From assembly GCA_963697065.1 (NCBI GenBank), contig CAVOMQ010000001.1, positions 252,538-316,537 on the forward strand: a stretch of 64,000 nt of DNA, written 5' to 3'. Both the position numbers and the translations under genes were made by a program. Positions within the stretch are counted from its first letter, which is position 1, and each line of letters opens with the position of its first letter. Source of the DNA: an uncultured Gemmatimonadales bacterium. GTDB lineage: Bacteria; Gemmatimonadota; Gemmatimonadetes; Gemmatimonadales; GWC2-71-9. Positions 26,903-49,590 of this stretch are shown here, piece after piece. Under the pieces are notes generated by a model, which was not told where the DNA came from, searched no databases, and saw only the letters and a program-made list of their open reading frames with translations.

Positions 26903-26958
26903 GGCACCTCCACGGTGGATGACATCGGCCGCCGGACGCCCACGGCTGCCGCGGAATG

Positions 26959-29601: not shown

Positions 29602-29827
29602 CGATTCACCTCGGTGGTCGGGGTGCAGGGGCGCCACGGCGCTCGCACCGGCCGGCGCGCCACGATAAGTCTAACGTCGCCCCGATACCCTCGGCTGGGT
29701 GACGCGGGGGTGCGGAAGCGCGCGCGGCCGGCGTCCCCGGCAGTAGCACCCCACGCTGGCTGGGGGGCCCGACTATACTGCCGCTGCAGCCTGTCCCGAA
29801 CCGCACCCGCACCTGGAGTCTGGCATC

Positions 29828-30253
29828 ATGAACCGCAAGGCAACCGCACGCTGGCACGGTGATCTCAAGGACGGCAACGGCACGTTCCGCACCGAGAGCG
29901 ACCTGGTGGTCGGCACGTATTCGTTCGGCACCCGCTTCGGTTCGTCGCCGGGTACCAACCCCGAGGAGCTGATCGCGGCGGCGCACGCCTCGTGTTTCTC
30001 GATGGCGTTCGCCAACGGACTCGCCACCGGCGGCCACACCCCGGACGATGTCGAGACAGTCGCCACCGTCCGGCTCGAAAAGACCCCGGACGGCTTTGCC
30101 ATCACCGGCATCGAGCTCGACTGCACGGTCAAGGTGACCGGCATCCAGGGGGCGGAATTGCAGGCGGTGGCCGATGGCGCGAAGAAGGGGTGCCCGGTTT
30201 CGAAAGCGCTGAGCGCGGTGCCCATCTCCCTCAAGCTCACCCAGGCGTCCTGA
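29828..30253 (+). CDS. osmC: OsmC-family peroxiredoxin
   Basis: 141-aa ORF. NPEELIAAAHASCF and AKKGCPVSKAL carry the two conserved OsmC cysteines. Confidence 0.92.
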   Translation: MNRKATARWHGDLKDGNGTFRTESDLVVGTYSFGTRFGSSPGTNPEELIAAAHASCFSMAFANGLATGGHTPDDVETVATVRLEKTPDGFAITGIELDCTVKVTGIQGAELQAVADGAKKGCPVSKALSAVPISLKLTQAS

Positions 30254-30548
30254 CGGCGGGGTCGCCCGGGTTGGTGGGTGCCCCCTATTGCCAAAACGCG
30301 TCGGGCGACGTTTCTTTGTTGCTTACGGTTGCCAGGCCCCATTCCGGGGCACGGAGAGGCTTCTGGGGGACGCGGTCGGGGGATCGGCGTTCAGTCGGTC
30401 CCCCGCTGAGTATCCCGACCGTACGCACCAGGCGGCAGGAGCCGTCCCGTGCGGAAGCCGACCCGCCGCGAGGGGATGATCGCGTACCTGTAGTCGGTCG
30501 TACGGCATTGCCGGGACTCGATTACACTCATTGAGGAGCAGTACCAGC

Positions 30549-30866: not shown

Positions 30867-32384
30867 CTACACCTCCCACCCCGACTGGTATCCCGGCTTG
30901 AGGTAGGGATTGGCCAGCGGCGCGTTGGTGACGGTCATGTTGTCCGCGTCGTAGAGAATCTTCTTCCCCTGACCGGTGCGCAGTGCCACAATGCCGAGCA
31001 ACATTGTCTCGGTCAGGCGCGCGGCGTAACTGATCGGCGACGTCGCCTCGCCCTGGCCCTTGCAGGCCAGCGCCCAGTTCATCTCGTGACTCACGGTGAT
31101 GCGGGGATATTTCTGCGGCACCGACGCCGTCTGCTGCATCAGCTCGGCGGGGAAGAGCCGCGGATGCTCACCGTAGGTCTCGTGCATCAGCAGTCCGCGA
31201 TCGCCGACGAAGATGGCACCGCCTTCGGCGTTGAGCGCCACCGAGTCGGGGAGTGACGCCGGCCGCTGCGGGTAGAGCCCGCCGTCGTACCAGGTCATGC
31301 GCACCGGCGGCTGTGCGCCACGCGCCGCGAAGTCGTAGTGCACCGTCATGGCCCATGGGTACGACACCGGGTCGCGGCGAGACCCACCCCACGGCGTCGA
31401 TGTTGCTTCGATGCTGAGCGGCAGCCCCAGGTCGAGCGCCCAGAACGGATGGTCGATCAGGTGCGCGCCCATGTCGCCCAGTGCGCCGGCCCCGAAATCG
31501 AGCCACCCGCGCCAGTTGAACGGATGGTAGATAGGGTGGTAGTCGATGGGGTTCTCGGCCGGCCCGGTGTAGAGGTCCCAGTGCAGCGTCGACGGCACCG
31601 CGTGGGTGTTGTTGGCCAGGCCGTTGGCGATGACGGCGTTGACGGTCCCTTCGTCCCACTCCATCGGCACGTCAGGATTCTGCGGGGCGTTGGGATCGGG
31701 AGTCCACAGCGGCCGTTGCGCCGGCGCCGGAATGGACTGCGGCCAGATCGGGCGGTTGGTCCAGACGTGGACTTCGCGCACGTCGCCGATCAACCCGGCC
31801 TGGACCCACTCGTTGATCAGCCGGGCGTCATCGCTGGAATGGCCCTGATTGCCCATCTGCGTCACCACGCCGGTGTCGGCCGCCGTCTTCGCCAGCACGC
31901 GGGACTCCCACACCGAATGCGTCAGCGGCTTCTGCACGTAGACGTGTTTCTTCGCCAGCATCGCCGTCTTGGCGACGATGGCGTGCGCCACGTCAGGCGT
32001 GGCGATGACCAGCGCTTCGATGTCCTTCTGCTTGTCGAGCATCTCGCGGAAATCGGCGTACCGCTTGGCCTTGGCATACTGGTCGCGGAGCTTGAGCACG
32101 TCGGGGGGCGTGGCGCCGTTCTTGTCCTTCTGCTTGAGATGGTCGGCCAGGGAGCGATCGACGTAGCCGAAGTCGACGTCGCACACCGCCACGATGTTCT
32201 CGCTGACCAGCGCCTGCGCGTTGTTCATGCCCATGCCGCCGGTGCCGACCATGGCGATGTTGAGCGTGTCGCTGGGCGCCTGGAAGCCGCGCCCCAGCAC
32301 GTGGCGCGGCACGATCATCGCGCTCAGTGCAGCCTGCCCCGTTCCGGCCACGAATTTCCGCCGGGTCAGCTTGCCACGTGCCAT
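30867..32384 (-). CDS. Gfo/Idh/MocA-family oxidoreductase with Tat signal
   Basis: ATG 32384 inside track ORF 30867..32480. Twin-arginine signal [11 protein letters not shown] and a Rossmann motif [10 protein letters not shown]. Confidence 0.88.
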
Positions 32385-32463
32385 GACGACCGCCTTTCTG
32401 TCGTTTGGAAGAGGATCTCCGGCAAATAGGTTCGCCGCCGCCGATCCTGTCAAGCAGCGCCGA

Positions 32464-32931
32464 TCAGCCGGCGCCGCCACCGTCCGACGCCGCCTGGACC
32501 GCCTGACGGAACGCCAGCGGCGCCTGGATTCCCTCGAACCGCTCGTTGGTGCCGCCGCTGCCGGTCACGACGATCTCGCCGTAGCCGAACATGCGGCCGG
32601 CCAGCGTCTGCTCCACAGTGATGGCCTCGACCTTGGGAAGGAGCAATTCCAGCGAGCGGGTGTTGAGCGCGCCGAGCTTGACGACGACGCGCTTGTTGGT
32701 GACGGCGAACTCGGACGTCCGCCGCCTGAGCCAGGGTCCGACCAGCAGGAGCAACGCCAGGATGCCCGGGATCAGCGCCAGCAGGTGCGGCGCGGTGGAC
32801 GTGAGGATCCAGACCGCCGCCGCGGCAAGCAGTATCGTGCCGCAGAGCGGCAGCACGTACACCTTCCAGTGAAGGCGCGTCCGGAACAGCACCGTCTCGC
32901 CCGGCAACAGGTTGGCATTGATGAAGCTCAT
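32464..32931 (-). CDS. Membrane-anchored bacterial PH-domain (bPH_2 / YdbS-T-like) protein
   Basis: 155-aa [15 protein letters not shown], two TM helices, then [13 protein letters not shown]...[21 protein letters not shown]. Confidence 0.8.
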
Positions 32932-32997
32932 GAAACCACTCGCGGAGTCTGGGGCGCTGGAACTTACCCGCCCCGCTCGACGCCGGCGACCCGACGA

Positions 32998-33441
32998 CTA
33001 CCGCAGGGTGGAAAGCGCCTTCCCGAGCGTGCCGCGATCGAGCGGTGAGAGCTGCTCAGCGAACTCGGCGCCGATCCGGGCCAGCTCGGCGGCACCGGCG
33101 GCCTGGCGCTCCTCTCCCAGACGCGTCACGGCGGCCCGCACCGAACGACGGTCGGCGGCGTCGTGCACCCGGCGAACCAAGCCTTCCGATTCGAGACGGT
33201 CCACCAGCTGCGTCATGTTCGACCGCACGCAGCTCAACCGCGCCGCCAGCTCGCTCAACGGCAGCGGCTCCGTGGCATCGATGAGCTGGGTCAGCACACC
33301 GAGTTTGGCGACCGACAGCCCGACGGCGGCCAGCGCCGACTCGAGACGGTCCTCCCACATGTGGGCGGCGCCGAAGAGGGAGAGCATTGTCCGGTCGCCT
33401 CCCTCGGTGGCGGACGGCGCGGGTTTCAGACGACGATTCAT
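32998..33441 (-). CDS. MarR-family transcriptional regulator
   Basis: 147-aa ORF. The winged HTH is LSELAARLSCVRSNMTQLVDRLESEGLVRRVHDAADRRSVRAAVT. Confidence 0.88.
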   Translation of the reverse strand: MNRRLKPAPSATEGGDRTMLSLFGAAHMWEDRLESALAAVGLSVAKLGVLTQLIDATEPLPLSELAARLSCVRSNMTQLVDRLESEGLVRRVHDAADRRSVRAAVTRLGEERQAAGAAELARIGAEFAEQLSPLDRGTLGKALSTLR

Positions 33442-33475
33442 ATATGAACTATATCGCGTGGGACGCCGCTGTCAA
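33437..33475 (-). promoter_or_regulatory. Near-consensus promoter plus palindromic operator; predicted leaderless marR transcript
   Basis: On the minus strand: TTGACA (33475-33470), 16 nt, TATAGT (33453-33448), 6 nt, then ATG (33441). The perfect 12-bp palindrome TTCATATATGAA (33448-33437) spans the predicted +1 and the start codon. Confidence 0.55.
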
Positions 33476-33493
33476 CCCCGGGGGCGGCGAGAC

Positions 33494-34135
33494 TCACCGC
33501 TTGCGGGCCAGCAGGACGCCGTCGCGAATGGGAACCAGCGCCGCGGTCCAGGCGGGATCACCGAAGACCCGGCGGGTCAGCTCGCGGACCCCTTCGGTGG
33601 CGGCCGAGCGGTCGGCGGCGTCGAAAACACGCCCGCTCCAGAGCAGGTTGTCGACGATGAGCACGCCGCCGGGGCGGAGCTTTTCGGCAATCACCGGCAG
33701 CGAGGCGGGGTAGCCCGACTTGTCGATGTCGTTGAAGATCAGGTCGAACGGTCCCTCGCTGCGCCGCAGCGCCTCGACCGCCTCGCCCACGTGGTAGCTG
33801 ATCAGGTGTTGCAGGCCGAGCCGATCGAGGTGTCCACGTGCGCGAACGGAGAGGGCGTCGTCCCACACCACGTGGTGGACGGTCCCGCCGCCATTCTCGT
33901 CCACGCCGCGCGCGAACCACGCCGTCGAGTAGCCGAACCCCGACCCCATTTCGAACACCTGCCGGGCACCGATCAGCCGGGTCACCAGATAGCAGAGCTG
34001 GCCCGCCACCGGCCCGATGATCGGGAAGCTGGTGCGCGCCGCCTCGGCTTCCATTTCCTGCAGCTCGCGAGGCCGCTCGGGCACGAGGGCTTCGAGATGC
34101 GCGACGACGCGCGGATCGAACGGATCGATGGACAC
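33494..34135 (-). CDS. Class I SAM-dependent O-methyltransferase (caffeoyl-CoA OMT-like)
   Basis: GTG 34135 inside track ORF 33494..34369. SAM motif VFEMGSGFGYST, then DLIFNDIDKSGYP and LRPGGVLIVDNLLWSG. Confidence 0.85.
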   Translation of the reverse strand: MSIDPFDPRVVAHLEALVPERPRELQEMEAEAARTSFPIIGPVAGQLCYLVTRLIGARQVFEMGSGFGYSTAWFARGVDENGGGTVHHVVWDDALSVRARGHLDRLGLQHLISYHVGEAVEALRRSEGPFDLIFNDIDKSGYPASLPVIAEKLRPGGVLIVDNLLWSGRVFDAADRSAATEGVRELTRRVFGDPAWTAALVPIRDGVLLARKR

Positions 34136-34142
34136 AGGCCGC

Positions 34143-34439
34143 TCAGCGCGCCAGGAGGGCGCCGAAGAGGACCACGGCGCCGATGGCGAAGACGACGATG
34201 ACCAGGCGCTGACGAAGCGCCCGCAGGGCATCCCAGCTGGGGAGATCGAGATACCAGCGATCCGGCTCCGCTTCGCGGAGCACGGCGCGCCGTTGCAGTC
34301 TCCGCCACGCGGCACCGGCGTGCACCGAGAGGTGTTCGCGCGTGACGGCGCGGTCCGGCGAGGTGGCACCGGCCGCCTGGAACGCGGCGACGATGCGCTT
34401 CTCGCGGATGATCATGGCGCCGGCAGCCGCGGCAGTCAT
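34143..34439 (-). CDS. Hypothetical protein with C-terminal TM anchor
   Basis: 98-aa ORF with an ATGA overlap with the upstream gene and a C-terminal hydrophobic helix LVIVVFAIGAVVLFGALLA. No family recognised. Confidence 0.5.
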   Translation of the reverse strand: MTAAAAGAMIIREKRIVAAFQAAGATSPDRAVTREHLSVHAGAAWRRLQRRAVLREAEPDRWYLDLPSWDALRALRQRLVIVVFAIGAVVLFGALLAR

Positions 34440-34645
34440 TGGCTACCTCCGGTCGGAATCGAGAGGGACGTGGCACCGGCTCGCGGGCGACGCACCAGCT
34501 CGCCGCCGCAGTTGGGGCAGCGCCCGGCCATCGCCTCGGTGCACGACGTGCAGAAGGTACATTCGTAGCGGCAGATGAACGCCACGCCGTCCGCGGACAA
34601 CGCCGAGTCGCACCGTTCGCACCGCGTTCGCATCTCCAGCGCCAT
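34436..34645 (-). CDS. DUF1272 zinc-ribbon protein
   Basis: ATG 34645 inside track ORF 34436..34681. MALEMRTRCERCDSAL...CRYECTFCTSCTEAMAGRCPNCGGELVRRP matches the DUF1272 Cys pattern. Confidence 0.75.
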   Translation of the reverse strand: MALEMRTRCERCDSALSADGVAFICRYECTFCTSCTEAMAGRCPNCGGELVRRPRAGATSLSIPTGGSQ

Positions 34646-34652
34646 GATCCGA

Positions 34653-37600
34653 CTACCTCGGGGCGAGCGTGCGCCCGGCATCGAGGTGATCGAAGTTCAG
34701 GATCGCGTTGAAGACCAGAAAGTAGCTCCCGATCGTCTCCCCGCGGTAGATCGGGTTGTTGGCGAACAACACCACGTTCCCCTTTCCGACCGGATCGTCG
34801 ACCACCACCGGGCGCTGCGCGATCTCGCTGCCGCCGTCAAGCAACCCGGAGACCAGCAGGTCGCTCTGGTCGCTGAACCGCAGCACGACGCGAGGGCGTT
34901 GGTCGGGCGGAATAAGGTTGAGCGGGCTGCGCAGCTGATCGTCGGTGACCGACGGCAGTTCCCACGGCATCACCCGCTCGCGCGGCAGCGCGAGGTTGGC
35001 GGTATCGAGCGGCGGCCTGCCCTGCACCACGTCGGTGTCGTCAGGCGTGCCGCGGCCGGTGGCCGCGTTCCGCGCCGCCGCCGCGCCCACCACCACCACC
35101 ACGGCCGCCCCGGCTGTTACTCACGGCGAAGCTCTCGCCGTCGTCGCTGTACACCGCCAGGCGGTCGCGGATGCCGTAGGCAATCGGCGACAGCGAATCG
35201 ACCAGCCGGGTGCGCAGCAGGCTCCCCACCACCTTGCTCCGGGCGGCGTTGGCACTGACGCCGCTGGTGATGCCGAAATCGATGGCAAAGTCGGCGGTGT
35301 TGGCGACGCCGATGTACAACCCGCCGCTGTCGACGAACTGCTGCAGATGTTCCAGGCCATCCCACCCCAGCCCGGGGCGGATGTCGTCGGTCTGGGCCCA
35401 GGTGCCGATGTTGGGCGTGAGCGCGGTGTGTTTCCACGGCATCGGGTTGCGCCACATCGGCATGCCCTCGATGATCGACTGCCCGCTGCCGCCGCCCGGC
35501 CCGAAGATGATGACGTCGTAGCGGGCGTGCAGGTCGGCGTCGCGCGCCACGTCCTGCGTGCTGATGTAGTCGTAGGGCACCTGCAGCTTGTCGAGCGCCT
35601 CGCGCCACCACCCTTCGGTCTGGGTGCTGCTCCAGGTGTGCACCAAGGCGATGCGGGCCGCCCGCACCGGATGGGTGGGGACATCCGGCGCCGATGGCAA
35701 CGCGAGGACCGGAATGCCCAGTCGTGGCGGCCGCGTTCGCCAGCTGGTCGCGCGAGACACCCTGCACCAGGAACGAGCCGCGATCGAAGTGGCGGCCGCC
35801 GGCGTCGAACGGTTGTTCGGCGGCGTCGAATCTGGCGTCCTTGAGCTGATACCGCAGCGTCACCAGGGCGTTGTCGCCGTCATGATCGATGGCGTAGATG
35901 TCTCCGGTGCCGGAGACGCCGCCCGGCGCCGTGACGGTGTCGGTGACGTGCTCCATGGGCACCGCCAGCACGGTCGTGTCGGTCACGCGCACCGCCTCGA
36001 CGGCAAAGCCTTCGGGAAAGGTCCAGCCGGTGTCGTCGTAGGGATGCTTCTGCGGATCGTTCGGGCTCCAATACTGGTAGTCGAGCAGCGCGTCGGCGAT
36101 CCGCGAATAGGGCTGGTCCATCCGCACGATATAGGTGCCGGCCGGAAAGCGCCGCGTCGTGGCAGCCGCACCATTCGCCGGCGCGGCCGCGCCCCGCCCG
36201 CCCCGGCCCGCGGCGCCGCCTCCACCGCCCCGGCCGCCGCGACCGCCGCCGCCGCCCGGTGACGGCACCGTCACGCTGAACGGCGCGCGTGGCCCGGGAG
36301 ATCTCGACATGCTGGTGCTGCAGCACGCGCAGCAGATCCGCCTGCGCGCCCGGGCGCGGGTCGTCGGCCGGGAACACGTATGCCGCCGGGCCTTCGGTCC
36401 GCGCCTTGGCGATCGATCGTTTGCTCTTCTGCTAGAAGTTCTGCAGGAACAGCTGGCGATTGTTGGCGAAGTAACTGAGCGACACGAGCAGGCCGGTCTC
36501 TTCGTAATTGTTGTTGTCGCGCATCGACCATTCCACCCGCGGCAGCGGCGGATCCTGCCGGTACCAGGTGCGACTCGGTTTCCGACGGACGACAGCGTGC
36601 GTTCCAGCGTTTCCGGCGGTGCCGCCGTTGCCGAACGTCTCGTAGAGGCGGCGAGATACCGTTGTGCGTGGCCGCCATGAACATCAGGTATCCGGGCGAC
36701 CAGGTGTCGAAGTCGCCGTGGGCGAAGACGCCGGGCATGCCGAAGCGCGTCATCTCCTGCACGTTGTTCCAGCCGATCATCTGCCACTCGTTGGTGAGCA
36801 GCGGATCGAGCCAGGCGTTGTACGGGCCGTCGCCGATGGTGTTGTCGTAGAGGTACGGTTCCGACTCGTGCAGGTCGTGCAGCACCTGGGCATTCCAGCC
36901 GAGGTAGGTGTCGAGCACGTGCTGCGAGAGCTCGAGCGTCAGCGCCATGGCGTCACGGTTGTTGTCATGCGCCACGTAATGGCCCCAGTAGATCAGCGGC
37001 GGCACGGTTTCGCCGGGATGCTGCACGTGCCAGTGGTAGAGATCGACCATCGCGGTCACGGCCGTCGACTTCCACGATCGGTGTGATCAGCGTGATGACG
37101 TGATCGCGGATATTGCTGGATGTAGGGGCTGTTGTCGACCGCGAGGCGATAGGCCAGCTCCATCAGCGCCGTCGGCGCGCCCGCTTCGGTGGAGTGGATC
37201 GTGCCCGGTGATGTAGTAGACCGGCGCCGTGGTGGCTGCCAGCCGCCGCGCCAGCGAATCGTCGAAATGGATGGTACGCGGATCGGCGAGCTTCGCGAGG
37301 TTGGCGTTGTTGGCGTCGAGATGCGCCATCAGCGCCTCCGACGCCACGCCGACGGCGATCATCTCCCGGCCTTCCTCCGTCGTCGCCGATCGAGAACACC
37401 CGCACGCTTGGCGTGGCCTTCGCGAGCATCCGCATGTAGGCGTAGACCTCCTTCGAGTAGGGCAGGTTGGTCGGGATTGCCGGCGATGTCGCCAAGCACT
37501 GCGGCCGGGGTCGGGCACCGTCTTCGATGCCGGCAGATAGTCCACCAGCGGCGAGAGGAAGAACGGTTCGGTGGTGTACTCGCAGGATCTTGCGGGTGTA

Positions 37601-37738
37601 GGCCGAGTCGACCGGCTGCGCCGGGTCGCGACCCGGCGGCGCCAGCGAGGGATCGACGCCCTGCGCCCGGAGCGGAGCCCGGGCGGTCAGCACCGCGGCA
37701 GTGAGCAGACATCCCGTCGACACGACACGGCGCAGCAT
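34653..37738 (-). pseudogene. Peptidase M14 (zinc carboxypeptidase family), secreted; disrupted by ~13 frameshifts and one in-frame TAG
   Basis: Family-typical sequence is spread over track ORFs 37163..37786, 37359..37766, 37087..37545, 36271..37059, 35880..36377, 35117..36787, 35041..35760 and 34653..35102. Examples are TIHSTEAGAPTALMELAYRL, YWGHYVAHDNNRDA, HDLHESEPYLYDNTIGDGPYNAW and FAHGDFDTWSPGYL. See the findings for breakpoints. Confidence 0.85.
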
Positions 37739-37786
37739 GACACCTCCGGCGGCACGAGACGACCACAGCGGGAATCGCAACGGCAT

Positions 37787-38482
37787 TCAGTCTTCGCTGG
37801 GCAGGTGGAGATACATCGACTGCAGCGCGACCCGCCCCGGCCCGGTGAACCGGTTCATCACCAGGTTGGTGCCGGCCAGGATGCCGGTCGCCATCCGTTG
37901 CATCAGCGTCTCCATCCGCACATGCGGATCCTTGTAGAGCCAGCCGCCGGGCTCGATGTCGATCGACTCGCCGGCCGCGAGCGGCTTTTCGAACACGTTG
38001 CCATAGCCGTGCAGCCAGAGCACGCCCTCACCCTGGTCGAGATGGAACTTGTCGATGAAGAACCCGGTGCCGCCGAAGAGGAGATTGGCGACGCCGCGAA
38101 CCCGCTCGAAGGTGTAGGAAATGTTGGCGGTGGCGGCCAGGAACTGGTGCTCCCGGACGTGGATCTCACCACCCGCATGCAGGTGAATCGCCGCGATATG
38201 CCCCGGGCCGTCCCGGCTGAACGCCACCTGCCCCGGTCCGCGCGCTTCGGTGAGGAAGACCGGCATGCCGGCCATCATCCGTTTCATCGCGCCCTTCATG
38301 GGTCGCAGCGCGATCTGTACTTCGGGATGCTTCCACAGCAGGACATGGTGTTCGAAGAAGACCGCCTCGCCGGCCGGCAGTTCGACCGTCAGCGCCGGCA
38401 CCAGCTCGCCATCGAGGTGATACGCGACGCCGGCAATTGTCTCCTCCACCACACTGGTCGACAGCAGCGTCGGCCGCTCCAT
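37787..38482 (-). CDS. AIM24-family (DUF124 / TIGR00266) protein
   Basis: ATG 38482 inside track ORF 37787..38551. GEAVFFEHHVLLWK, GTGFFIDKF.G.G.LWLHGYGNVFE and GWLYKDP are characteristic of the AIM24 family. Confidence 0.85.
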   Translation of the reverse strand: MERPTLLSTSVVEETIAGVAYHLDGELVPALTVELPAGEAVFFEHHVLLWKHPEVQIALRPMKGAMKRMMAGMPVFLTEARGPGQVAFSRDGPGHIAAIHLHAGGEIHVREHQFLAATANISYTFERVRGVANLLFGGTGFFIDKFHLDQGEGVLWLHGYGNVFEKPLAAGESIDIEPGGWLYKDPHVRMETLMQRMATGILAGTNLVMNRFTGPGRVALQSMYLHLPSED

Positions 38483-38525
38483 CGGGTCTCCCTGGTACGA
38501 GTCGATGCACCGCTCCGGGCAGCGG

Positions 38526-38834
38526 CTACTTGCGCGGAATCCGCCGTCCACGGCGCGCCTGATACTCCGGATGATCCTTCAGCTCGACATAGACCTTGCG
38601 CAGCAATTCCAGCCGGTGCCGGATGTCGGCGACGTCGGCACCGCCTTCCTTCTCCTGCTCCAGCCGGAGTATCTGGGTGTTCAGCGAGCGACGGAATCGG
38701 CCATCGGTGGTGACATTGAGCAGCTCGCGCAGCTTCACGAGCTGCCGCTCGACCTGGGCCGCGTCGCCCCCCTCGGTGCGCTTCGTCAATTGCTCGATGT
38801 GCCGGGAAAGTGCCTTCCGAAACATGATGGACAT
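38526..38834 (-). CDS. Hypothetical coiled-coil protein
   Basis: ATG 38834, with AGGA 6 nt upstream, inside track ORF 38526..38867, 102 aa. It is charged and has a heptad-like sequence (QVERQLVKLRELL, ILRLEQEKE, RHRLELLRKVYVELK). No family recognised. Confidence 0.55.
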   Translation of the reverse strand: MSIMFRKALSRHIEQLTKRTEGGDAAQVERQLVKLRELLNVTTDGRFRRSLNTQILRLEQEKEGGADVADIRHRLELLRKVYVELKDHPEYQARRGRRIPRK

Positions 38835-38967
38835 GGACGATCCTGATTCTGCAAAGTGAGGAGCCAAGCGGTCGGGCCAAGTATAACGGGATTTCGACCG
38901 CGACGATCAAGAAAACTTCTCCGGACTTTCATCGTTCCTTCATGCCGCCGGAGGTAGGATAAGGGCT

Positions 38968-39012
38968 GCGAACGGATGCGTTCGCGCGATGTTTTCTTTC
39001 CAGGAGGACAAT
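38968..39012 (+). promoter_or_regulatory. Structured hsp20 leader: hairpin plus U-tract facing the Shine-Dalgarno (fourU-like RNA thermometer candidate)
   Basis: Hairpin GCGAACG-GATG-CGTTCGC (38968-38985). Then UUUU (38992-38995) can pair with AGGA of the SD AGGAGGA (39002-39008), extended by G38991-C39009 and U38990-A39010. The ATG is at 39013. Confidence 0.3.
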
Positions 39013-39456
39013 ATGCGACTCACGAGGAGTTCCTCAACCCCGACCACCTATCCGGCGGTCCGGGAGAATCTCGACCGGTTGGTCGATCGGTTCTTCAATG
39101 GCGACTTCCTGCCGGCGCGCGACGTCGAAACCATGTGGACGCCAAGCCTCGATTTTTCGGAAACCGGCACCGAGTATCTGGTCCGGCTCGAGGCACCCGG
39201 CATCCCCAAGGACGATCTCGACGTCAAGCTCGACGGCCAGACCCTCACGCTGAGCGGGCGGCGGGACTTTGCCAACGAGGAGAAGACCGAAGACTTCTTC
39301 TGGCGGGAGCGGGAGCAAGGGCGTTTCATGCGGGTACTCCAGCTGCCGACGATGGTCGACGGGACCAAGGTCGAGGCGAAATACGACAACGGCATCATGA
39401 CCGTCCGGCTGCCCAAGAAAGAGGCCGCGGGCAAGACCCAGATCCCGATCAGGTAG
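39013..39456 (+). CDS. Hsp20 / alpha-crystallin small heat-shock protein
   Basis: ATG 39013, with AGGAGG 5 nt upstream, inside track ORF 38989..39456. The alpha-crystallin domain is WTPSLDFSETGTEYLVRLEAPGIPKDDLDVKL...GRFMRVLQLP...AKYDNGIMTVRLPK. Confidence 0.9.
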   Translation: MRLTRSSSTPTTYPAVRENLDRLVDRFFNGDFLPARDVETMWTPSLDFSETGTEYLVRLEAPGIPKDDLDVKLDGQTLTLSGRRDFANEEKTEDFFWREREQGRFMRVLQLPTMVDGTKVEAKYDNGIMTVRLPKKEAAGKTQIPIR

Positions 39457-39485
39457 ACCTGATCGGACCAACCAGGAGACCGGCC

Positions 39486-39875
39486 ATGCGAGTCGCCGAA
39501 CTGATGCAGACGCAGGTTCGAACCATCTCGATCGACAGCACCTTGTTGGACGTGGTGGTGGAGCTGGCCGACGGGCACGTTTCGGCCCTGCCGGTAATGG
39601 ACGGCGGCAATCACATGGTCGGCGTCGTTTCGACGGCCGACGTGCTGGTGGCGCAGGCGGAACACGGTCAGCGGTGGGAAGAGATCACCGTCGACGAAGT
39701 CATGACGCAGCCGGCACTCACCATCACGCCGGACGCCGAGGTGGCGGAAGCCGCGCAACGCATGCTGTACGGCGACGTCCACCGGCTCTTCGTCGAAGAC
39801 GGCGGCGAACTGGTGGGGGTGATTTCGCAGACCGACGTCGTCCGCGCGCTGGCAACCCGAAAACTGGGGCGCTGA
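39486..39875 (+). CDS. CBS-domain pair protein
   Basis: ATG 39486 inside track ORF 38976..39875, 129 aa. Two CBS repeats (VAELMQTQVRTISIDSTLLDVV...HVSALPVMD; VDEVMTQPALTITPDAEVAEAAQRM...HRLFVED..LVGVISQTDVVRAL). Confidence 0.88.
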   Translation: MRVAELMQTQVRTISIDSTLLDVVVELADGHVSALPVMDGGNHMVGVVSTADVLVAQAEHGQRWEEITVDEVMTQPALTITPDAEVAEAAQRMLYGDVHRLFVEDGGELVGVISQTDVVRALATRKLGR

Positions 39876-39960
39876 CCGCCGCGAAAACCGCCCGCTCGCC
39901 CCGGCATGGAGCCGAACGGGCGGTCTCCCGTCTCCCCGCGAGACGGCGTATTCCGCGCCG

Positions 39961-40164
39961 TTACGCCGGGTGCGTCCCGGCTCGGCGGCGGGCGTCGACG
40001 ACCCGATACATCGGACAAAACCCCGTCACCGCCGTACCCAGCGGAATGAGACCGATCAACGCCAGATAATGCCAGGCCCCTGGCAATGCTGCGTACAGCC
40101 CGAGTATCACCAGTCCGATGATCGCCCGTGCGATCCGCTCGACCGGTCCAACGTTGCGCTCCAT
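39961..40164 (-). CDS. DUF2892 (YgaP-like) small membrane protein
   Basis: 67-aa ORF. NVGPVERIARAIIGLVILGL...GFCPMY matches the DUF2892 pattern (N.G..DR..R...G....GWCP.Y). Confidence 0.75.
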   Translation of the reverse strand: MERNVGPVERIARAIIGLVILGLYAALPGAWHYLALIGLIPLGTAVTGFCPMYRVVDARRRAGTHPA

Positions 40165-40260
40165 GGTCCACCTCCCTCTTCAGGACTGATTCGGAGCCTA
40201 GTGGTCTCCGAGTGAAGAGAGCGTGAAACGCCGATGAGCGAACGTTCCTGTTGCCCGGCC

Positions 40261-41310
40261 CTACGGACGGGGATGCACCCAGTGCGGAGCGGTCTGCCAC
40301 GTCGCCGGATCGAAGAGCGCGTCGGGGAGGTCGCGGGTGACGCTCCAATCGTAGTACTCCTCGACCTGGTGGATCCCCGGAGCGGTGATGTCGACCCGCG
40401 TGGCCAACCAGCCGCCGCCCGCCTGGCGATAGTCGCCGAGCCGGATGTCGATCGGCGGGCCGCCGCTGAAGCCGCCGCGCATCCGTACCGCCACCAGTCG
40501 TGCCGGGTCGACCCAGAACTGCGGCGAGGTGGTGTCCGCCGGATCGGACGTCCCCACGATGATCACCGGCACGCCGTTCCACCCGGTGCGCGTGGTGCGG
40601 CTCAGGTCGACACCGAACGACCGCAACTGCCGCAACGATGAGTCGACCGGCTGCAGATAGATACCCATGACGAACGGCAGCGCTTCGTTGCCGCCGGCGC
40701 GGCGCACCGCCACGGTACCGTTGCGCAGCACCGTCAGCGAATCGACCGTGTACAACACGCCGTTACCGGTCGCGGGGTCGCCCGTGTCGATGCGGAGCAG
40801 CCGCGGTCCCTTGAGGCTTTCATACCAGATGGCGGTGTCAGTGGTGGTGCCGTGGGTGCGGATGGTGCGCTGCGAGAAGGTCAAAGTCGAGAACCACTTT
40901 CCGGCATAACCGTCGTGCATTCGGGTCACGACGTCGACGCCGTCGGTGTTGCGTTCGGCCGCCGGGCGCGCGGCGCGGAAGTCGCCGGTTCCCTCGCCGT
41001 TGAAGTCGACGGTTCCCGTCATCGAGTCCCCGCGTACCCGCGCCACCATGGTGAGGGTCAACGGATGACCGTTGTAGTCCACGACATAGCTGAAGGTCAC
41101 CGTATCGCGCCGGATCGCACCGGTCAGCGGCTTGGCGCCGTTGTCGTCCACGGTTCCCGAGAGCGTGTCACCCGAGACGGCGAACGTGATGCCCAGCGGG
41201 ACCGACCCGCCGGGAGTGTCCATCGCTCCGTTCCACCTGCCGGCAACCGATTGCGCCACCAGCGGGTGGGCCAGCGCGAACAACGCCAACAACCTCCAGG
41301 GGGTCTTCAT
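40261..41310 (-). CDS. Secreted hypothetical protein
   Basis: ATG 41310 inside track ORF 40261..41763, 349 aa. Signal peptide MKTPWRLLALFALAHPLVAQ. No family recognised. Confidence 0.7.
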   Translation of the reverse strand: MKTPWRLLALFALAHPLVAQSVAGRWNGAMDTPGGSVPLGITFAVSGDTLSGTVDDNGAKPLTGAIRRDTVTFSYVVDYNGHPLTLTMVARVRGDSMTGTVDFNGEGTGDFRAARPAAERNTDGVDVVTRMHDGYAGKWFSTLTFSQRTIRTHGTTTDTAIWYESLKGPRLLRIDTGDPATGNGVLYTVDSLTVLRNGTVAVRRAGGNEALPFVMGIYLQPVDSSLRQLRSFGVDLSRTTRTGWNGVPVIIVGTSDPADTTSPQFWVDPARLVAVRMRGGFSGGPPIDIRLGDYRQAGGGWLATRVDITAPGIHQVEEYYDWSVTRDLPDALFDPATWQTAPHWVHPRP

Positions 41311-41487
41311 CGTGCGCCTCCGGGCGTGCCAATCGTCATGAAATCGGATCCGCGGCCGCACCGGCCGCGCCATTCGCCGTCCAAACCTAACGCGCCGCGA
41401 CGCCGGCCCGGGCGCGCCAGCATGCCGACCGCGGCCCGGCGTGGTATCGTTACCGGAGCAGACTTCCCGCCCCGCCGAGGATTCAGG

Positions 41488-42918
41488 ATGCGTCTCCCAT
41501 CCTTTCCGTTTCGCCGCGCGACGCTGCTGCGATGGCCCGCAGCAGTGCTGGCGCTCGCCGCCTTCGCGCCGGTGGCCCGCCCACCCGCGGTCGACTGGAC
41601 CCGCTTCGGATTCGACATGGGCCGAGCCAGCGCCCCCACCGCCAACATGGGGTTCGCCGCCGCCAACATCACGACGCTGCGCCGACAACAGGTGACTCTC
41701 GACGGCACCGTCGACGCCTCGGCCATCTATCTCCACGGTGTGGCGGTGCACGGCGCGCCGCACGACGTCTTCTTCGTCACCACGACGTACGGCAAGACGG
41801 TCGCGATCGATGCCGGCGACGGCACGGTGCTGTGGGAATACACGCCGCCCAGCTACGACGCCGTCGCCGGGTCGCGCCAGATCACCACCGCCACGCCGGT
41901 GGCAGATCCGGATCGGCGCTTCATCTATGCCGCGTCACCCGATGGAATGATCCACAAGCTCTCGGTGGCCGACGGCCGGGTCATCTGGAGCACATCCATC
42001 ACGCGCCTGCCGCGGCGCGAGAAGATCGCGTCGGCGTTGAATTACGATCGCGGCCACGTCATCGCCACCACCGGTGGCTATATCGGTGATGCTCCGCCGT
42101 ACCAGGGGCACGTCGCCATCCTCGATGCCGGCACGGGGCGATTGGAGCACATCTGGAATTCGCTCTGCAGCGACCGGCACGAGCTGATCGATCCGGCGTC
42201 GTGCAAGTCGAGTGACTCCGCCATCTGGGGACGGGCCGGTGCGGTGGTCGATTCGGTGACCGGCGATCTCTTCGTCGCCACCGGCAACGGCCCGTGGAAC
42301 GGCACCAGCGACTGGGGCGACGCCATCGTCGAACTCGACCCGGGGGCCGCCACCATCCTCGGCAACTACACGCCGGAGAACACCGCCGAGCTCGATGCGG
42401 ACGACGCCGACCTGGGGTCGACCTCGCCCGTCGTGCTGGGCGGTGGTTTCGTGGTACAAGGCGGCAAGGACGACCTGATCCGGATCATCGACTGGTCGAA
42501 GATGCGCGGCACCACGCCGCACAAGGGCGGCGAACTGCAGACGGTGCCGACGCCGTCGGGCACCCGACTGTTCACGGCGCCGGCGGTGTGGCACGACGGT
42601 GCCGCCGTGTGGTTGTTCGCCGCGGACAACGGCGGCACCACCGCCTGGCGCATCGAAAACAACCGGCTGCAACCGGTGTGGCACAATGCCACCGGCGGCA
42701 CGAGTCCGATCGTGGTCGACGGCATGCTGTTTGTGTACGATCCGGGAGGCGGGCTGCACCTTTACGACGCCGCCAGCGGTCACGGCATCGGCACGCTGCC
42801 CTGCGGCAGCGGCCACTGGAACAGCCCCATCGCCGTCGACGGCCGCATCGCCCTCCCCGAAGGGAATGCCAACGATCGCCGCACCAGCGGAGTATTCGAC
42901 ATCTGGCGGCTACCGTGA
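41488..42918 (+). CDS. Secreted PQQ-like / BamB-like beta-propeller repeat protein
   Basis: ATG 41488 inside track ORF 40852..42918. It has a signal peptide and repeated blades of the type GKTVAIDAGDGTVLWEY, GMIHKLSVADGRVIWS and HVAILDAGTGRLEHIW. Confidence 0.8.
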   Translation: MRLPSFPFRRATLLRWPAAVLALAAFAPVARPPAVDWTRFGFDMGRASAPTANMGFAAANITTLRRQQVTLDGTVDASAIYLHGVAVHGAPHDVFFVTTTYGKTVAIDAGDGTVLWEYTPPSYDAVAGSRQITTATPVADPDRRFIYAASPDGMIHKLSVADGRVIWSTSITRLPRREKIASALNYDRGHVIATTGGYIGDAPPYQGHVAILDAGTGRLEHIWNSLCSDRHELIDPASCKSSDSAIWGRAGAVVDSVTGDLFVATGNGPWNGTSDWGDAIVELDPGAATILGNYTPENTAELDADDADLGSTSPVVLGGGFVVQGGKDDLIRIIDWSKMRGTTPHKGGELQTVPTPSGTRLFTAPAVWHDGAAVWLFAADNGGTTAWRIENNRLQPVWHNATGGTSPIVVDGMLFVYDPGGGLHLYDAASGHGIGTLPCGSGHWNSPIAVDGRIALPEGNANDRRTSGVFDIWRLP

Positions 42919-44771
42919 CATTCCGGCGCGGCACGCTCGCCGGCGTGACCGCACTGTTCATCGCGGCGGCACCGGCCGGGGCGCAATATCAGTCGGCCAA
43001 CGGAACGGACGTGATCGAAGAGCGGTCCGCCGCGGCGCGACCGGTAGCCGACTATGTCATTCACGTCGATCCCGCCGACACCACCGGATTCGGCGTCAGC
43101 ATGCACGTCGGGAATGTGCCGGACACGTTCCGGGTGGCGATGGCGGCGCACCCGGAATACGACGACGCCTACTGGCGCTACCTCGCCGACCTGCATGCCG
43201 AGTCGCCGCGCGGCACCGCGTCGATCACGCCGGTCGACCACGGCCTCTGGCGGGTCGTCACGACCGGTGGTGACGTCACGATCCGATACCGTCTCGTGCT
43301 CCCGGCGCAGCCGGGCGGGCGCTATGCGTACCGGCCATTCGTCTCGCGGAGCGGCGCGATGGTGGGCGACATCCACAGCCTGATGTATGTGGTGGGTGCG
43401 ACGCAGGCACCGGCACATGTCACGGTCGACGTGCCGGCCGACTGGACGATCGCCACCGGCCTGGAACCGGGCGCTCAACCCCGGACGTTTATCGCGCCGA
43501 ATGCGTCGGCACTGCTGGACTCGCCGATTCTGGCCGGACATGTCGCCGAGTGGCGGTTCACCGTCGACGGCGTGCCCCACCGTGTGGTGTACTGGCCGGC
43601 GCCCCGGGCCGCGGTGTTCGACACAGCCGCCTTCGTGGGCGGCATCGAGCGGATCGTGCAGCAGGCAGTGGCGCTCTTCGGAGATGCGCCCTATCGCGAT
43701 TACACCTTCCTGTTTCGCGACAGCGCCTTCGGTTCGCTGGAACACGCCAACTCGGTGACCATCGGGATTCCGGCTGCCGATCTGGCTCGCGATCCCGCCT
43801 CATATTTCGAGGAGATCGCGCACGAATACTTCCACGCGTGGAACATGATCCGCATCCGTCCAGCGGAGTTCGGCGACGTGAGCTACCGCACGCCGGCGCG
43901 GAGTTCGGCGCTCTGGTGGAGCGAAGGGGCGACGATGTTCTACGCCGACCTTCTGACACGCCGTGCCGGACTCGAGACGGAAGATTCGACACGGGTCTCG
44001 CACCTCGAGCGATTGCTGGGGGAATATTTCAGCACGTCAGGCAACACGACGTTGTCGCCCGAACGCGTCAGCCGCGCCGCCTACGGCCCGCAGGAAACGC
44101 AGCTGGGTGACAACACCGCCAGCACCCATCTGCAGGGTGAACTCATCACCGCTGCGCTGGATCTGACGATCCGCAACGCCACGGCCGGGGCGCGTTCGAT
44201 CGACGACGTGATGCGGGCCATGCTGGCACACCACTCCGGTGCGCCGGGGTTCACCAGCGACGATGTGGCGCGCGAGGCGGCGGCGGTGTGCGGGTGTGAC
44301 ATGACGCGGTTCTTTGCCGAGCACGTGCACGGCGATCGGCCGGTCGAGATGAACCGGTATCTGGCGTTCCTCGGTCTGGTGAGCCGAACGGAATGGGAGC
44401 CGGCGCGCAACGCCGACGGTACCCGGCAGCCCGATCTGCGCTTCTATGCCTGGAAGCCGGATAGTGGCGGCGGTTTGCGCCTCTACGTGCTCGACACCGC
44501 AAGCGTCTGGGAGCATGCCGGCCTGCATACCGGCGATCGACTGGTGTCGCTCGACGACCGTCCCGTGGATACCGTGGCGGATTTCGCCGCGATGGTTCAC
44601 GCGTTGCGGATCGGCGACTCGGTGCGCGTCGTGGTGCGGCGTCCGGCCGGCAACTATCGGACGACGGTGGTGGTGACGGGCTACCGCCGCGCCGTGGTAA
44701 CGATCACCGAACAACCCGGCGCCACACCGGCCCAGCGCGCACTGCGCCGCGCCTGGCTGGCGGGACGCTAA
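42915..44771 (+). CDS. Peptidase M61 (glycyl aminopeptidase family) with C-terminal PDZ domain
   Basis: GTG 42915 (GTGA overlap) inside track ORF 42294..44771. It has a signal peptide, the zinc motif HEYFHAWN (HExxH), and a C-terminal PDZ-like GLHTGDRLVSLDDRPV. Confidence 0.88.
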   Translation: MTFRRGTLAGVTALFIAAAPAGAQYQSANGTDVIEERSAAARPVADYVIHVDPADTTGFGVSMHVGNVPDTFRVAMAAHPEYDDAYWRYLADLHAESPRGTASITPVDHGLWRVVTTGGDVTIRYRLVLPAQPGGRYAYRPFVSRSGAMVGDIHSLMYVVGATQAPAHVTVDVPADWTIATGLEPGAQPRTFIAPNASALLDSPILAGHVAEWRFTVDGVPHRVVYWPAPRAAVFDTAAFVGGIERIVQQAVALFGDAPYRDYTFLFRDSAFGSLEHANSVTIGIPAADLARDPASYFEEIAHEYFHAWNMIRIRPAEFGDVSYRTPARSSALWWSEGATMFYADLLTRRAGLETEDSTRVSHLERLLGEYFSTSGNTTLSPERVSRAAYGPQETQLGDNTASTHLQGELITAALDLTIRNATAGARSIDDVMRAMLAHHSGAPGFTSDDVAREAAAVCGCDMTRFFAEHVHGDRPVEMNRYLAFLGLVSRTEWEPARNADGTRQPDLRFYAWKPDSGGGLRLYVLDTASVWEHAGLHTGDRLVSLDDRPVDTVADFAAMVHALRIGDSVRVVVRRPAGNYRTTVVVTGYRRAVVTITEQPGATPAQRALRRAWLAGR

Positions 44772-44885
44772 CCGGCGGCACCGCGATCAGCGGCGCGTGA
44801 CGCGATACTCGGCGAACAGATTGCAGTGCCCGCCCGAGTCGCCCGATTCGAGCCGGACGAACCACAAGGGCGGGCCGCACTGCCC

Positions 44886-45290
44886 TCATCGCTTCGCTCC
44901 CCGCTTCCCGGAAGCTCCTGACGGTCGTCGCTCGCGCTGCTGCTGCCGGCTCGACGGACGGCGATGGAGCGGCTGGTAGACGCCGAGCTTGCCGCCACCC
45001 GGCAGCGACACTGCTGTCAGCAGGCCCCATGGCTGGCGGCGCACCGGCGCACACCTGGTCCCCTGTCGCCGCATGGCGGCGACGAAGTTCTCGATGTCAT
45101 CGCACATCAGATAGAGTTCGTGGTGTCCGTTTCTGGCGGCGGGATGAACGGCGACTTCCGCCGCGGGCAACGCCATGATCAGCCAACCGCCGCCGACATC
45201 GACGGCCGGAAGGCACAGCAACTCGTGAAGAAAGGCACGATCCGCATCGGCATCGCGCGACGAGAGCACCACATGAGCACCGTTGATCAC
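44886..45290 (-). CDS. VOC-family (glyoxalase-like) protein
   Basis: GTG 45290, with GGAGGG upstream, inside track ORF 44886..45425. VINGAHVVLSSRDADADRAFLHELL...HELYLMCDDIENFVAAMRRQG...PWGLLTAVSLPGGGKLGVYQP. Confidence 0.7.
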   Translation of the reverse strand: MINGAHVVLSSRDADADRAFLHELLCLPAVDVGGGWLIMALPAAEVAVHPAARNGHHELYLMCDDIENFVAAMRRQGTRCAPVRRQPWGLLTAVSLPGGGKLGVYQPLHRRPSSRQQQRERRPSGASGKRGAKR

Positions 45291-48490: not shown

Positions 48491-49213
48491 TCAGGAACGG
48501 CGGCGCCATGGCCGCGGCACCAGCGCCGGGACCTGGGCCTGGTATTCAGCGTATGGCGCGCCGAAATGCCCCGTCAGCAGCCGCTCTTCCTGCCCGGCCT
48601 TGATGACAAACCCGATCAGCACCAGCAGGAATCCTGTGGCGGCGGCGACGGTGGTCTCCATGACGGCCGTGCCGAACAGCGCCAGCAGCAGGCCGGTGTA
48701 AATCGGATGGCGCACCAGCGCGTACGGCCCGGTGCGGATGATGGCATGGGACGCCTTGAGCGTCGGCATGACGCTCCAGTACTGGCCCAGAACCCGGCGC
48801 GCCCAGACGGTGAACAGCAGACCGGCCAGGACGCACGCCAGCCCGAACCACGCGAGCGGCGTCGGGGACAGCGCTCGCCACGGCTGCAGCAGTCCGGCCC
48901 CGCGCGGATTCGCGACGAGCAACATCGCCCCGGCAACCGTCGGCACACCATACGCCAAGCGGTCCGCGATCGGCTGGACGATCACACCCTTGCGGTTCGA
49001 CCAGCCGACCGCCCGCCATCCCACGATCCAGACGATCCAGAGGAAGGCAATCGAGATACGCGGGAAGGCGATGGACATGGCAGGGCTCATCCGCCGTGGG
49101 AGTACACCGTTGAAAATACCCGCGAACGCGACAACCCCCTCACGGTGGGGCATCGCCATCACCGTGAGGGGGCTGTCATCGCTGGCGACGAGCGTCCGGT
49201 CTTTCGACATCAC
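48491..49213 (-). CDS. ICMT/PEMT-family membrane methyltransferase
   Basis: 240-aa track ORF; a later Met may be the true start. The C-terminal signature is LGQYWS...IIRTGPYALVRHPIYTGLLLALFG...EERLLTGHFGAPYAEY. Confidence 0.8.
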   Translation of the reverse strand: MMSKDRTLVASDDSPLTVMAMPHREGVVAFAGIFNGVLPRRMSPAMSIAFPRISIAFLWIVWIVGWRAVGWSNRKGVIVQPIADRLAYGVPTVAGAMLLVANPRGAGLLQPWRALSPTPLAWFGLACVLAGLLFTVWARRVLGQYWSVMPTLKASHAIIRTGPYALVRHPIYTGLLLALFGTAVMETTVAAATGFLLVLIGFVIKAGQEERLLTGHFGAPYAEYQAQVPALVPRPWRRRS

Positions 49214-49590
49214 GCGATACGTGATCCGGCCCGCTCGTCTTACCCTTGTCGCACGGCCGACTCAGGTGTGCCGCGCTCAGGCGGCTCCTCGGTTGTGGCC
49301 AGCGGCCTCACAACCTGACCGACAGCGTCGAATCGCTGTCGCCCGCTCTTCCGGCGGCGTCCCGCGGGAAGATCCCGTCCGCGGTCTGTTCCGTGCCGCG
49401 GACGCAGAGGAGATATTACCGCCGCTCCCGGAACGCGCAAGTAGGTGAAAGCCGGACAGGAAAGCGGTCGAGGGTGGAGGGACCGAGGGATGCTACGGTC
49501 GAATGCCATCGACAACGACCCCGGCCGCCGATATTCTCCAAACCCCGATCCGGTGATGTCCACGGTCGCAACGTCATCAGGAGTGACGCC

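Follow-up and report, generated by a model that had tools for sequence, protein, structure and literature searches.

Fourteen one-base insertions in an M14-family peptidase gene of an uncultured Gemmatimonadales bacterium are very probably assembly or consensus artefacts

Is the gene discussed here broken in the organism that carries it, or only in its deposited sequence? The question arises in a window of 64,000 nucleotides (by "the window" we mean this whole stretch, at its full length) taken from contig CAVOMQ010000001.1 of assembly GCA_963697065.1, which was obtained from an uncultured Gemmatimonadales bacterium. One M14-family zinc-carboxypeptidase-like gene occupies positions 34653-37738 on its minus strand, and the product of this gene (~1023 aa once corrected) can be read only by changing frame again and again. 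A first-pass annotation, made from the letters of the window, had followed one M14-type path of ~1,020 codons across 13 breaks and one premature TAG, and had proposed either an insertion-biased sequencing or assembly error or a very recent and unusual inactivation. Our data indicate 14 frameshifts and argue strongly for the first of these origins: the frameshifts are very probably assembly or consensus artefacts, and the gene itself one intact open reading frame (ORF), ordinary and conserved across Gemmatimonadota.

The frame changes were located with a custom protein-to-DNA alignment tolerating changes of frame, in which three intact orthologues (P0001, P0002 and P0003) served as references. 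Each of them could be aligned collinearly in one piece, with the ATG at 37738-37736 as the start and the TAG at 34655-34653 as the end; identity to P0001 was found at 903 of 1030 positions (88%). Such an alignment was the check that the first-pass annotation had called for; together with the three-frame translation, it established that the fragments form one collinear protein of about the length proposed, and it fixed the direction of each shift. Fourteen frame changes were needed, every one of them a +1 step corresponding to one surplus base in the window. At one site, the alignment with P0002 scored two missing bases instead, the frame step being identical. A three-way DNA alignment with two orthologous genes also revealed 14 one-base columns present in the window only, the gaps being common to both orthologues, which bears out the earlier view that extra bases are the simplest cause. 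The MAFFT placements of these columns are listed in Table 1 with five that were refined by a few bases through the protein alignment or a Logan contig (see below). No further frame-breaking indel was found in the window's gene by the three-way alignment. The other gaps of the window were multiples of three and fell in Gly/Arg-rich stretches; the gaps in a low-complexity stretch that are not multiples of three belong to the orthologous locus L002. The peptide path of the first-pass annotation was confirmed, with one break missed. What had been described as a single hop in the opposite direction near 36580 turned out to be two +1 shifts, at ~36589 and 36573, separated by 16-19 nt. Given equal odds of insertion and deletion, 14 shifts out of 14 in the same direction correspond to a two-sided p of ~1e-4.

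The most direct evidence on the reality of the extra bases came from Logan, in which every public sequencing run is assembled separately from its k-mers, retaining 31-mers seen at least twice and building contigs with Minia3 (PMC12424806). Five neighbouring proteins had exact matches both on a single deposited NCBI/ENA contig of 2,391,133 bp and in Logan. The Logan contig L083 (run ERR11523645, 4559 bp) corresponds to window positions 31492-36052 save for three differences: the extra base at 35722 is missing, the extra base at 35065 is missing, and at 35046, which is a third codon position, T stands in place of G without altering the amino acid. Since 35722 and 35065 are the only frameshift sites within L083, the extra base was missing at two out of two sites that could be compared, and the C-terminal M14 ORF of this contig runs unbroken over 465 aa. 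A second contig, L084 (7145 bp), corresponds to positions 38051-45195 with one mismatch at 45024 (C vs T) and no indel. Over the 10.3 kb compared with Logan contigs outside the M14 gene, there were thus 0 indels and 1 mismatch, and on one side of the gene the window and L083 are identical over 3.2 kb. The two single-nucleotide polymorphisms (SNPs) between the window and Logan, at 35046 (G vs T) and at 45024 (C vs T), may reflect the presence of more than one variant of the sequence in the sample.

A stretch left uncovered by Logan separates L083 from L084 (Table 1). At its borders, both contigs end in ordinary coding sequence, not in low-complexity sequence or repeats, and such a gap would be expected from low depth or from strain variation. 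Short protein searches for read-assembled fragments of 36053-38050 gave no match above 87% identity, within a narrow length band near that of the query, from which a fragment of 400-650 aa could escape. Exact look-ups gave no match, either for the products cut at the ends of L083 and L084 or for a product of 97 aa guessed for a contig adjoining L084.

Table 1. Coordinates of the M14-family gene, its lesions and its flanking genes in the window.
Feature	Positions	Strand	MAFFT placement	Refined placement	Context and basis
M14-family gene	34653..37738	-			interrupted by 14 extra bases and a TAG; frameshift-aware alignment, Pfam, gene order
Extra base 1	37582..37583	-	37583		ATC CTG [C] GAG, or CT[G]C; gap in both orthologues, +1 in protein alignment
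Extra base 2	37515..37515	-	37515		ACG GTG [C] CCG; protein and DNA alignments
Extra base 3	37472..37475	-	37472		AAT CCC [G] ACC; position ambiguous over 4 nt; protein and DNA alignments
Extra base 4	37384..37384	-	37384		ATC GGC [G] ACG; protein and DNA alignments
Extra base 5	37206..37206	-	37206		ATC ACC [G] GGC; just upstream of H-S-T-E motif; protein and DNA alignments
Extra base 6	37115..37117	-	37117		ATC C[A]G C AAT; without A, CGC (Arg) as in orthologues; DNA alignment
Extra base 7	37051..37052	-	37052		GAC CGC [G] ATG; protein and DNA alignments
Extra base 8	36651..36651	-	36651		ATC TCG [C] CGC; protein and DNA alignments
Extra base 9	36617..36619	-	36619	36617	GGC ACC [G] CCG; protein and DNA alignments
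Extra base 10	36589..36592	-	36592	36589	CTG TCG [T] CCG; protein and DNA alignments
Extra base 11	36573..36573	-	36573		ACC GAG [T] CGC; missed in the first-pass annotation; protein and DNA alignments
Extra base 12	36281..36288	-	36288	36281	CGC GCC [G] TTC, or ACG [C] GCG 7 nt upstream; placement ambiguous; protein and DNA alignments
Extra base 13	35722..35722	-	35730	35722	GCC ACG [A] CTG; Logan L083 reads GCCACG-CTGGGC
Extra base 14	35065..35065	-	35064	35065	GAA CG[C] G GCC; Logan L083 reads GAACG-GGCC
In-frame TAG	36432-36434	-			aligned with TGG (Trp) in the two nearest orthologues
Logan-uncovered stretch	36053..38050	.			between the end of L083 (36052) and the end of L084 (38051); holds 12 of 14 extra bases and the TAG
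Upstream neighbour, AIM24-family, 231 aa	37787..38482	-			intact; PF01987 profile 1-205 of 205
Downstream neighbour, DUF1272 protein, 69 aa	34436..34645	-			intact; PF06906 profile 1-56 of 57

Selective constraint pointed in the same direction. With the 14 bases removed, the ratio of nonsynonymous to synonymous substitution rates (dN/dS) of the M14 gene against the orthologous locus L001 was 0.125, and eight neighbouring genes gave values of 0.07-0.16. When the corrected protein was aligned with 120 orthologues, it had 2 private changes at columns conserved at 97% or more, which is the family median. Apart from the TAG, the corrected gene thus presented neither decay nor excess substitutions. 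This lack of extra substitutions also counts against unpolished raw-read noise.

The breakage is local. When the ORFs of 82 related loci were compared with the window in a scan for frame junctions, well-supported junctions were found inside the M14 gene only, with up to 115 supporting ORF pairs, and ~21 kb of flanking sequence contained no other well-supported frameshift. Segmentation based on G+C content at third codon positions (GC3), combined with ORF tiling over the whole 64 kb, indicated normal gene packing elsewhere. A few junctions of low support (1-3 supports), at 26954, 29784-30507, 32396-32404, 33450, 40173 and 49052-49461, were discarded as lying at gene boundaries or in intergenic sequence; those at 32396-32404, 33450 and 40173 were taken as false positives because the Logan contigs have no indel there.

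The in-frame TAG reported earlier was confirmed in the sequence. It is the sole substitution-type lesion of the gene, one G-to-A step away from TGG, and the corresponding column contains Tyr in 112 and Trp in 8 of 120 family members. This codon is probably a consensus error too. It could also be a chimera of TGG and TAC alleles, which is conceivable as both Trp and Tyr occur in the family, or it could be real.

Similar breakage was encountered in other contigs. Protein searches returned many fragments of 150-300 aa of the same M14 gene on contigs of 0.3-3.3 Mb. In L086:6001-9164 (ERZ25039457 contig_12417, 3.29 Mb), the M14 orthologue carries 2 frameshifts, both of them +1. In L087:800-9500 (ERZ25039503 contig_56993, 975 kb), 9-13 shifts were counted according to the reference orthologue used, of which 6-8 were +1, and genes adjoining the M14 gene are split as well (e.g., Radical_SAM). 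The ENA accession series and the "contig_N" naming of L086 and L087 match those of the contig of P0001, and the names also match Microflora Danica genomes. From accession and naming, we infer a pipeline common to these contigs and to the window. The Microflora Danica genomes were produced from Nanopore R10.4.1 reads with metaFlye and a single round of Medaka, with no short reads (PMC12313526), and the contig of the window would likewise stem from a soil metagenome assembled from Nanopore reads alone, with metaFlye and one Medaka round. Leftover indels and frameshifts at modest coverage are documented for Nanopore-only assemblies (PMC9262707; PMC8302730).

The frameshifts of the M14 gene resemble the documented ones in several respects: one-base indels break the ORFs of a long contig, they are missing from an independent assembly of reads at the sites it covers, the effect is worse at low depth, and they recur in contigs with the same ENA naming. 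They differ from the published errors, which mainly concern homopolymers and occur in both directions (PMC9262707), as here all 14 are insertions, mostly outside homopolymers, clustered in 2.5 kb and tending to follow third codon positions. The two insertions verified with Logan, G[A]C and G[C]G, each differ from both adjoining bases, and most of the others do likewise. For this reason, an origin in homopolymer errors was rejected. An influence of the GATC methylation motif was also considered, as several sites have a GATC close by and five are preceded by ATC, but it was rejected: the gene contains 30 copies of GATC and proximity to it was not enriched (p = 0.28). Among 4-mers and 5-mers around the 14 sites, no enrichment survived correction for multiple testing.

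All single-base deletions within 9 nt of each site were scored against four orthologues, and 11 of the 14 sites could be read as the third base of a codon with, directly after it, another base that would give a synonymous codon. Random insertions into the corrected gene fit the same pattern in 35-45% of cases (binomial p ~0.01). Two of the three exceptions can be read as alternative bases in tandem, C[A/G]C (His/Arg) and GA[G/T] (Glu/Asp), both versions being found in orthologues. When the sites of L086 and L087 were pooled with those of the window, 16 out of 22 followed the third-position pattern.

This suggests that most of the extra bases may reflect two alleles of a silent polymorphism written in tandem. 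In a patch of ~2.5 kb, reads would have been too few, or would have come from several closely related strains, or both. Where the reads conflicted, the consensus caller would have retained a base rather than dropped it, so that only insertions were created, and at a silent polymorphic site, or at very low depth, it would have retained both bases. The caller may have ranked "base deleted in some reads" above "base substituted". The retention of both alleles is suggested by the third-position pattern and by the two SNPs that distinguish the assemblies, and this model would account for the single direction of the shifts, for their non-homopolymer contexts and for the codon-position bias. Flye is known to merge strains of about 98-99% identity (Strainberry paper, PMC8302730), and several features recall a consensus of collapsed strains: the SNPs at 35046 and 45024, k-mer contigs that end around the patch, and extra bases resembling synonymous alleles. 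The two haplotypes are here presumed, and we found no published insertion of alleles in tandem.

Plain noise at low depth, with no mixture of strains, is a variant of the artefact interpretation and is not opposed to it; we consider it possible, though rather doubtful as the whole story. A dip in depth would explain why 36053-38050 is missing from the Logan contigs recovered, and the density of frame changes declines with distance from this stretch. In raw Nanopore reads, however, deletions and mismatches are no rarer than insertions. In this gene, no deletion was found and no surplus substitutions at conserved columns, and the agreement of 11 sites out of 14 with the third-position pattern exceeds the ~42% that random insertions would give.

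Several points weigh against the interpretation of the lesions as artefacts or against the mechanism put forward. The direct check reached just 2 of the 14 insertions and not the TAG, and no read-based contig was recovered for 36053-38050. The Logan contig could in principle represent another strain of the sample, in which the gene is intact. ERR11523645 may be either a long-read or a short-read run; the assignment of this run and of the deposited contig to the Microflora Danica data is presumptive, the run accession being absent from the searchable literature text. The significance of the third-position pattern is no more than moderate. Low depth or a mixture of strains is a putative mechanism, and no paper was found that describes an error in which both alleles are written in tandem. 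Also, published consensus errors of Nanopore data are mainly homopolymer indels (PMC9262707), and the insertions of the M14 gene are mostly not. For the twelve uncovered sites and for the TAG, we infer the same artefactual origin.

The opposite explanation is a genuine and very recent pseudogene, in the organism or in one of its strains, with the Logan contig coming from a sister strain that has kept an intact copy. As in bacterial unitary pseudogenes, several frameshifts and one premature stop occur between intact neighbours; twelve sites and the TAG lie outside the reach of the direct check, and the SNPs at 35046 and 45024 show more than one sequence variant in the data. However, given the identity of L083 with the window over 3.2 kb outside the gene on one side, the second strain would have to differ by the frameshifts alone. 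Decay also yields deletions and substitutions, whereas 14 insertions and 0 deletions were found here. In contrast to known unitary pseudogenes, constraint is not relaxed, as the gene and its neighbours have similar dN/dS values, and conserved sites carry no surplus of changes. Unrelated contigs with a matching ENA accession series and naming have the same +1 bias. The gene thus does not behave as a true pseudogene: its constraint is intact, and the lesions are missing at both testable sites (35722 and 35065), which contradicts the inactivation that had been envisaged in the first-pass annotation. Insertion-biased error, its alternative, agrees with those two sites, with the lack of any loss of constraint and with the +1 breakage in L086 and L087. 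A genuine pseudogene therefore appears improbable to us.

We consider it even less probable that the extra bases and the TAG are real in the strain of the contig, through an unknown mutational process producing only insertions or through tolerated +1 recoding, the Logan contig again coming from a sister strain. Programmed recoding, in which real extra bases would be bypassed by +1 ribosomal frameshifting, quadruplet decoding or transcript editing, would fit shifts that are all +1 and an intervening peptide that is perfectly conserved, but we give it hardly any credence, as the 14 sites have no common motif (4-mer, 5-mer and GATC tests being negative), all 120 of the closest orthologues listed are single ORFs, two of the sites are missing from a read-based contig, and bacterial genes with many such sites are not known to us.

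With the artefact interpretation retained, the M14 gene can be described in its corrected form. When the concatenated pieces of the different frames were used as a query, thousands of proteins of ~1020 aa bearing PF00246 were matched with E = 0, some of which are labeled "M14 family zinc carboxypeptidase" by certain sources (NCBI among them) and come from Gemmatimonadota metagenome genomes. The top matches of this draft concatenation were P0001 (1029 aa, 86% identity) and P0002 (1023 aa, 84%). Over its full length, the corrected protein is 70-88% identical to thousands of relatives, which share its gene neighbourhood, and the 120 orthologues listed as closest are roughly full length (984-1061 aa). 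In a collection with one genome per species, the best locus reached only 76% identity, so that the source genome is either not a representative of that collection or was ranked lower. By its score against Pfam PF00246 (Peptidase_M14; 47.5 bits for a cut-off of 21.6), the corrected gene is a member of the M14 family. The match covers residues 97-227 and positions 1-105 of the 286 of the profile, that is, just its first third, and contains an H-S-T-E motif common to P0001; ~800 further residues have no Pfam assignment. The N-terminal segment is signal-peptide-like, and the product is probably secreted. No characterized member of this subfamily of ~1020-aa M14 proteins was found with the database tools used. 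The protein has two Gly/Arg-rich low-complexity linkers, encoded on the minus strand at 36130-36270 (GGGGGRGGRGGGGGAAGRGGRG...) and 35065-35110 (SRGGRGGGGGRGGG), whose lengths differ among orthologues in multiples of three. An alternative in-frame ATG at 37786, directly abutting the AIM24 stop, would give 16 more residues. The spacing seen in the orthologue (48 nt after AIM24) favors the ATG at 37738 as the true start.

The order of genes around the M14 gene is that of L001 and L002: HSP20, CBS, a 102-aa gene, AIM24 and M14, followed by Methyltransf_3, MarR and bPH_2. The G+C content of the window is ~68% throughout. Both flanking genes are intact, as had been stated in the first-pass annotation, their Pfam profiles being covered as indicated in Table 1. 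The AIM24 protein is 90.5% identical to its L001 orthologue. Neither its 231-aa nor its 254-aa form had an exact record match, though five neighbours from the same contig do match; either a different start was chosen in the depositor's gene call, or the record is not the same at this place. The 3' part of the AIM24 gene falls inside the stretch that the Logan contigs leave uncovered. On the other side, the 69-aa DUF1272 protein is encoded identically by L083. The small genes between the M14 gene and the methyltransferase gene vary among close relatives (window 34143-34645; L001:13141-13449; L002:12272-12355): the window has DUF1272 (69 aa) and a 98-aa gene, L001 a single 102-aa gene without Pfam hit, and L002 none.

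For the biology of the organism, the breakage of this gene is of no consequence, and its relevance lies in data quality. An automatic annotation of the contig would report at least 5 fragments, or a pseudogene, instead of one protein of 1023 aa. Public protein collections already contain fragments of this gene that stem from other very long contigs and are to be regarded as artefacts. Errors that consist only of insertions after third codon positions are recognizable from the sequence alone, and this property could be used to flag or repair such patches in Nanopore-only metagenome genomes. If it is true that both alleles were retained, these patches would mark differences between strains.

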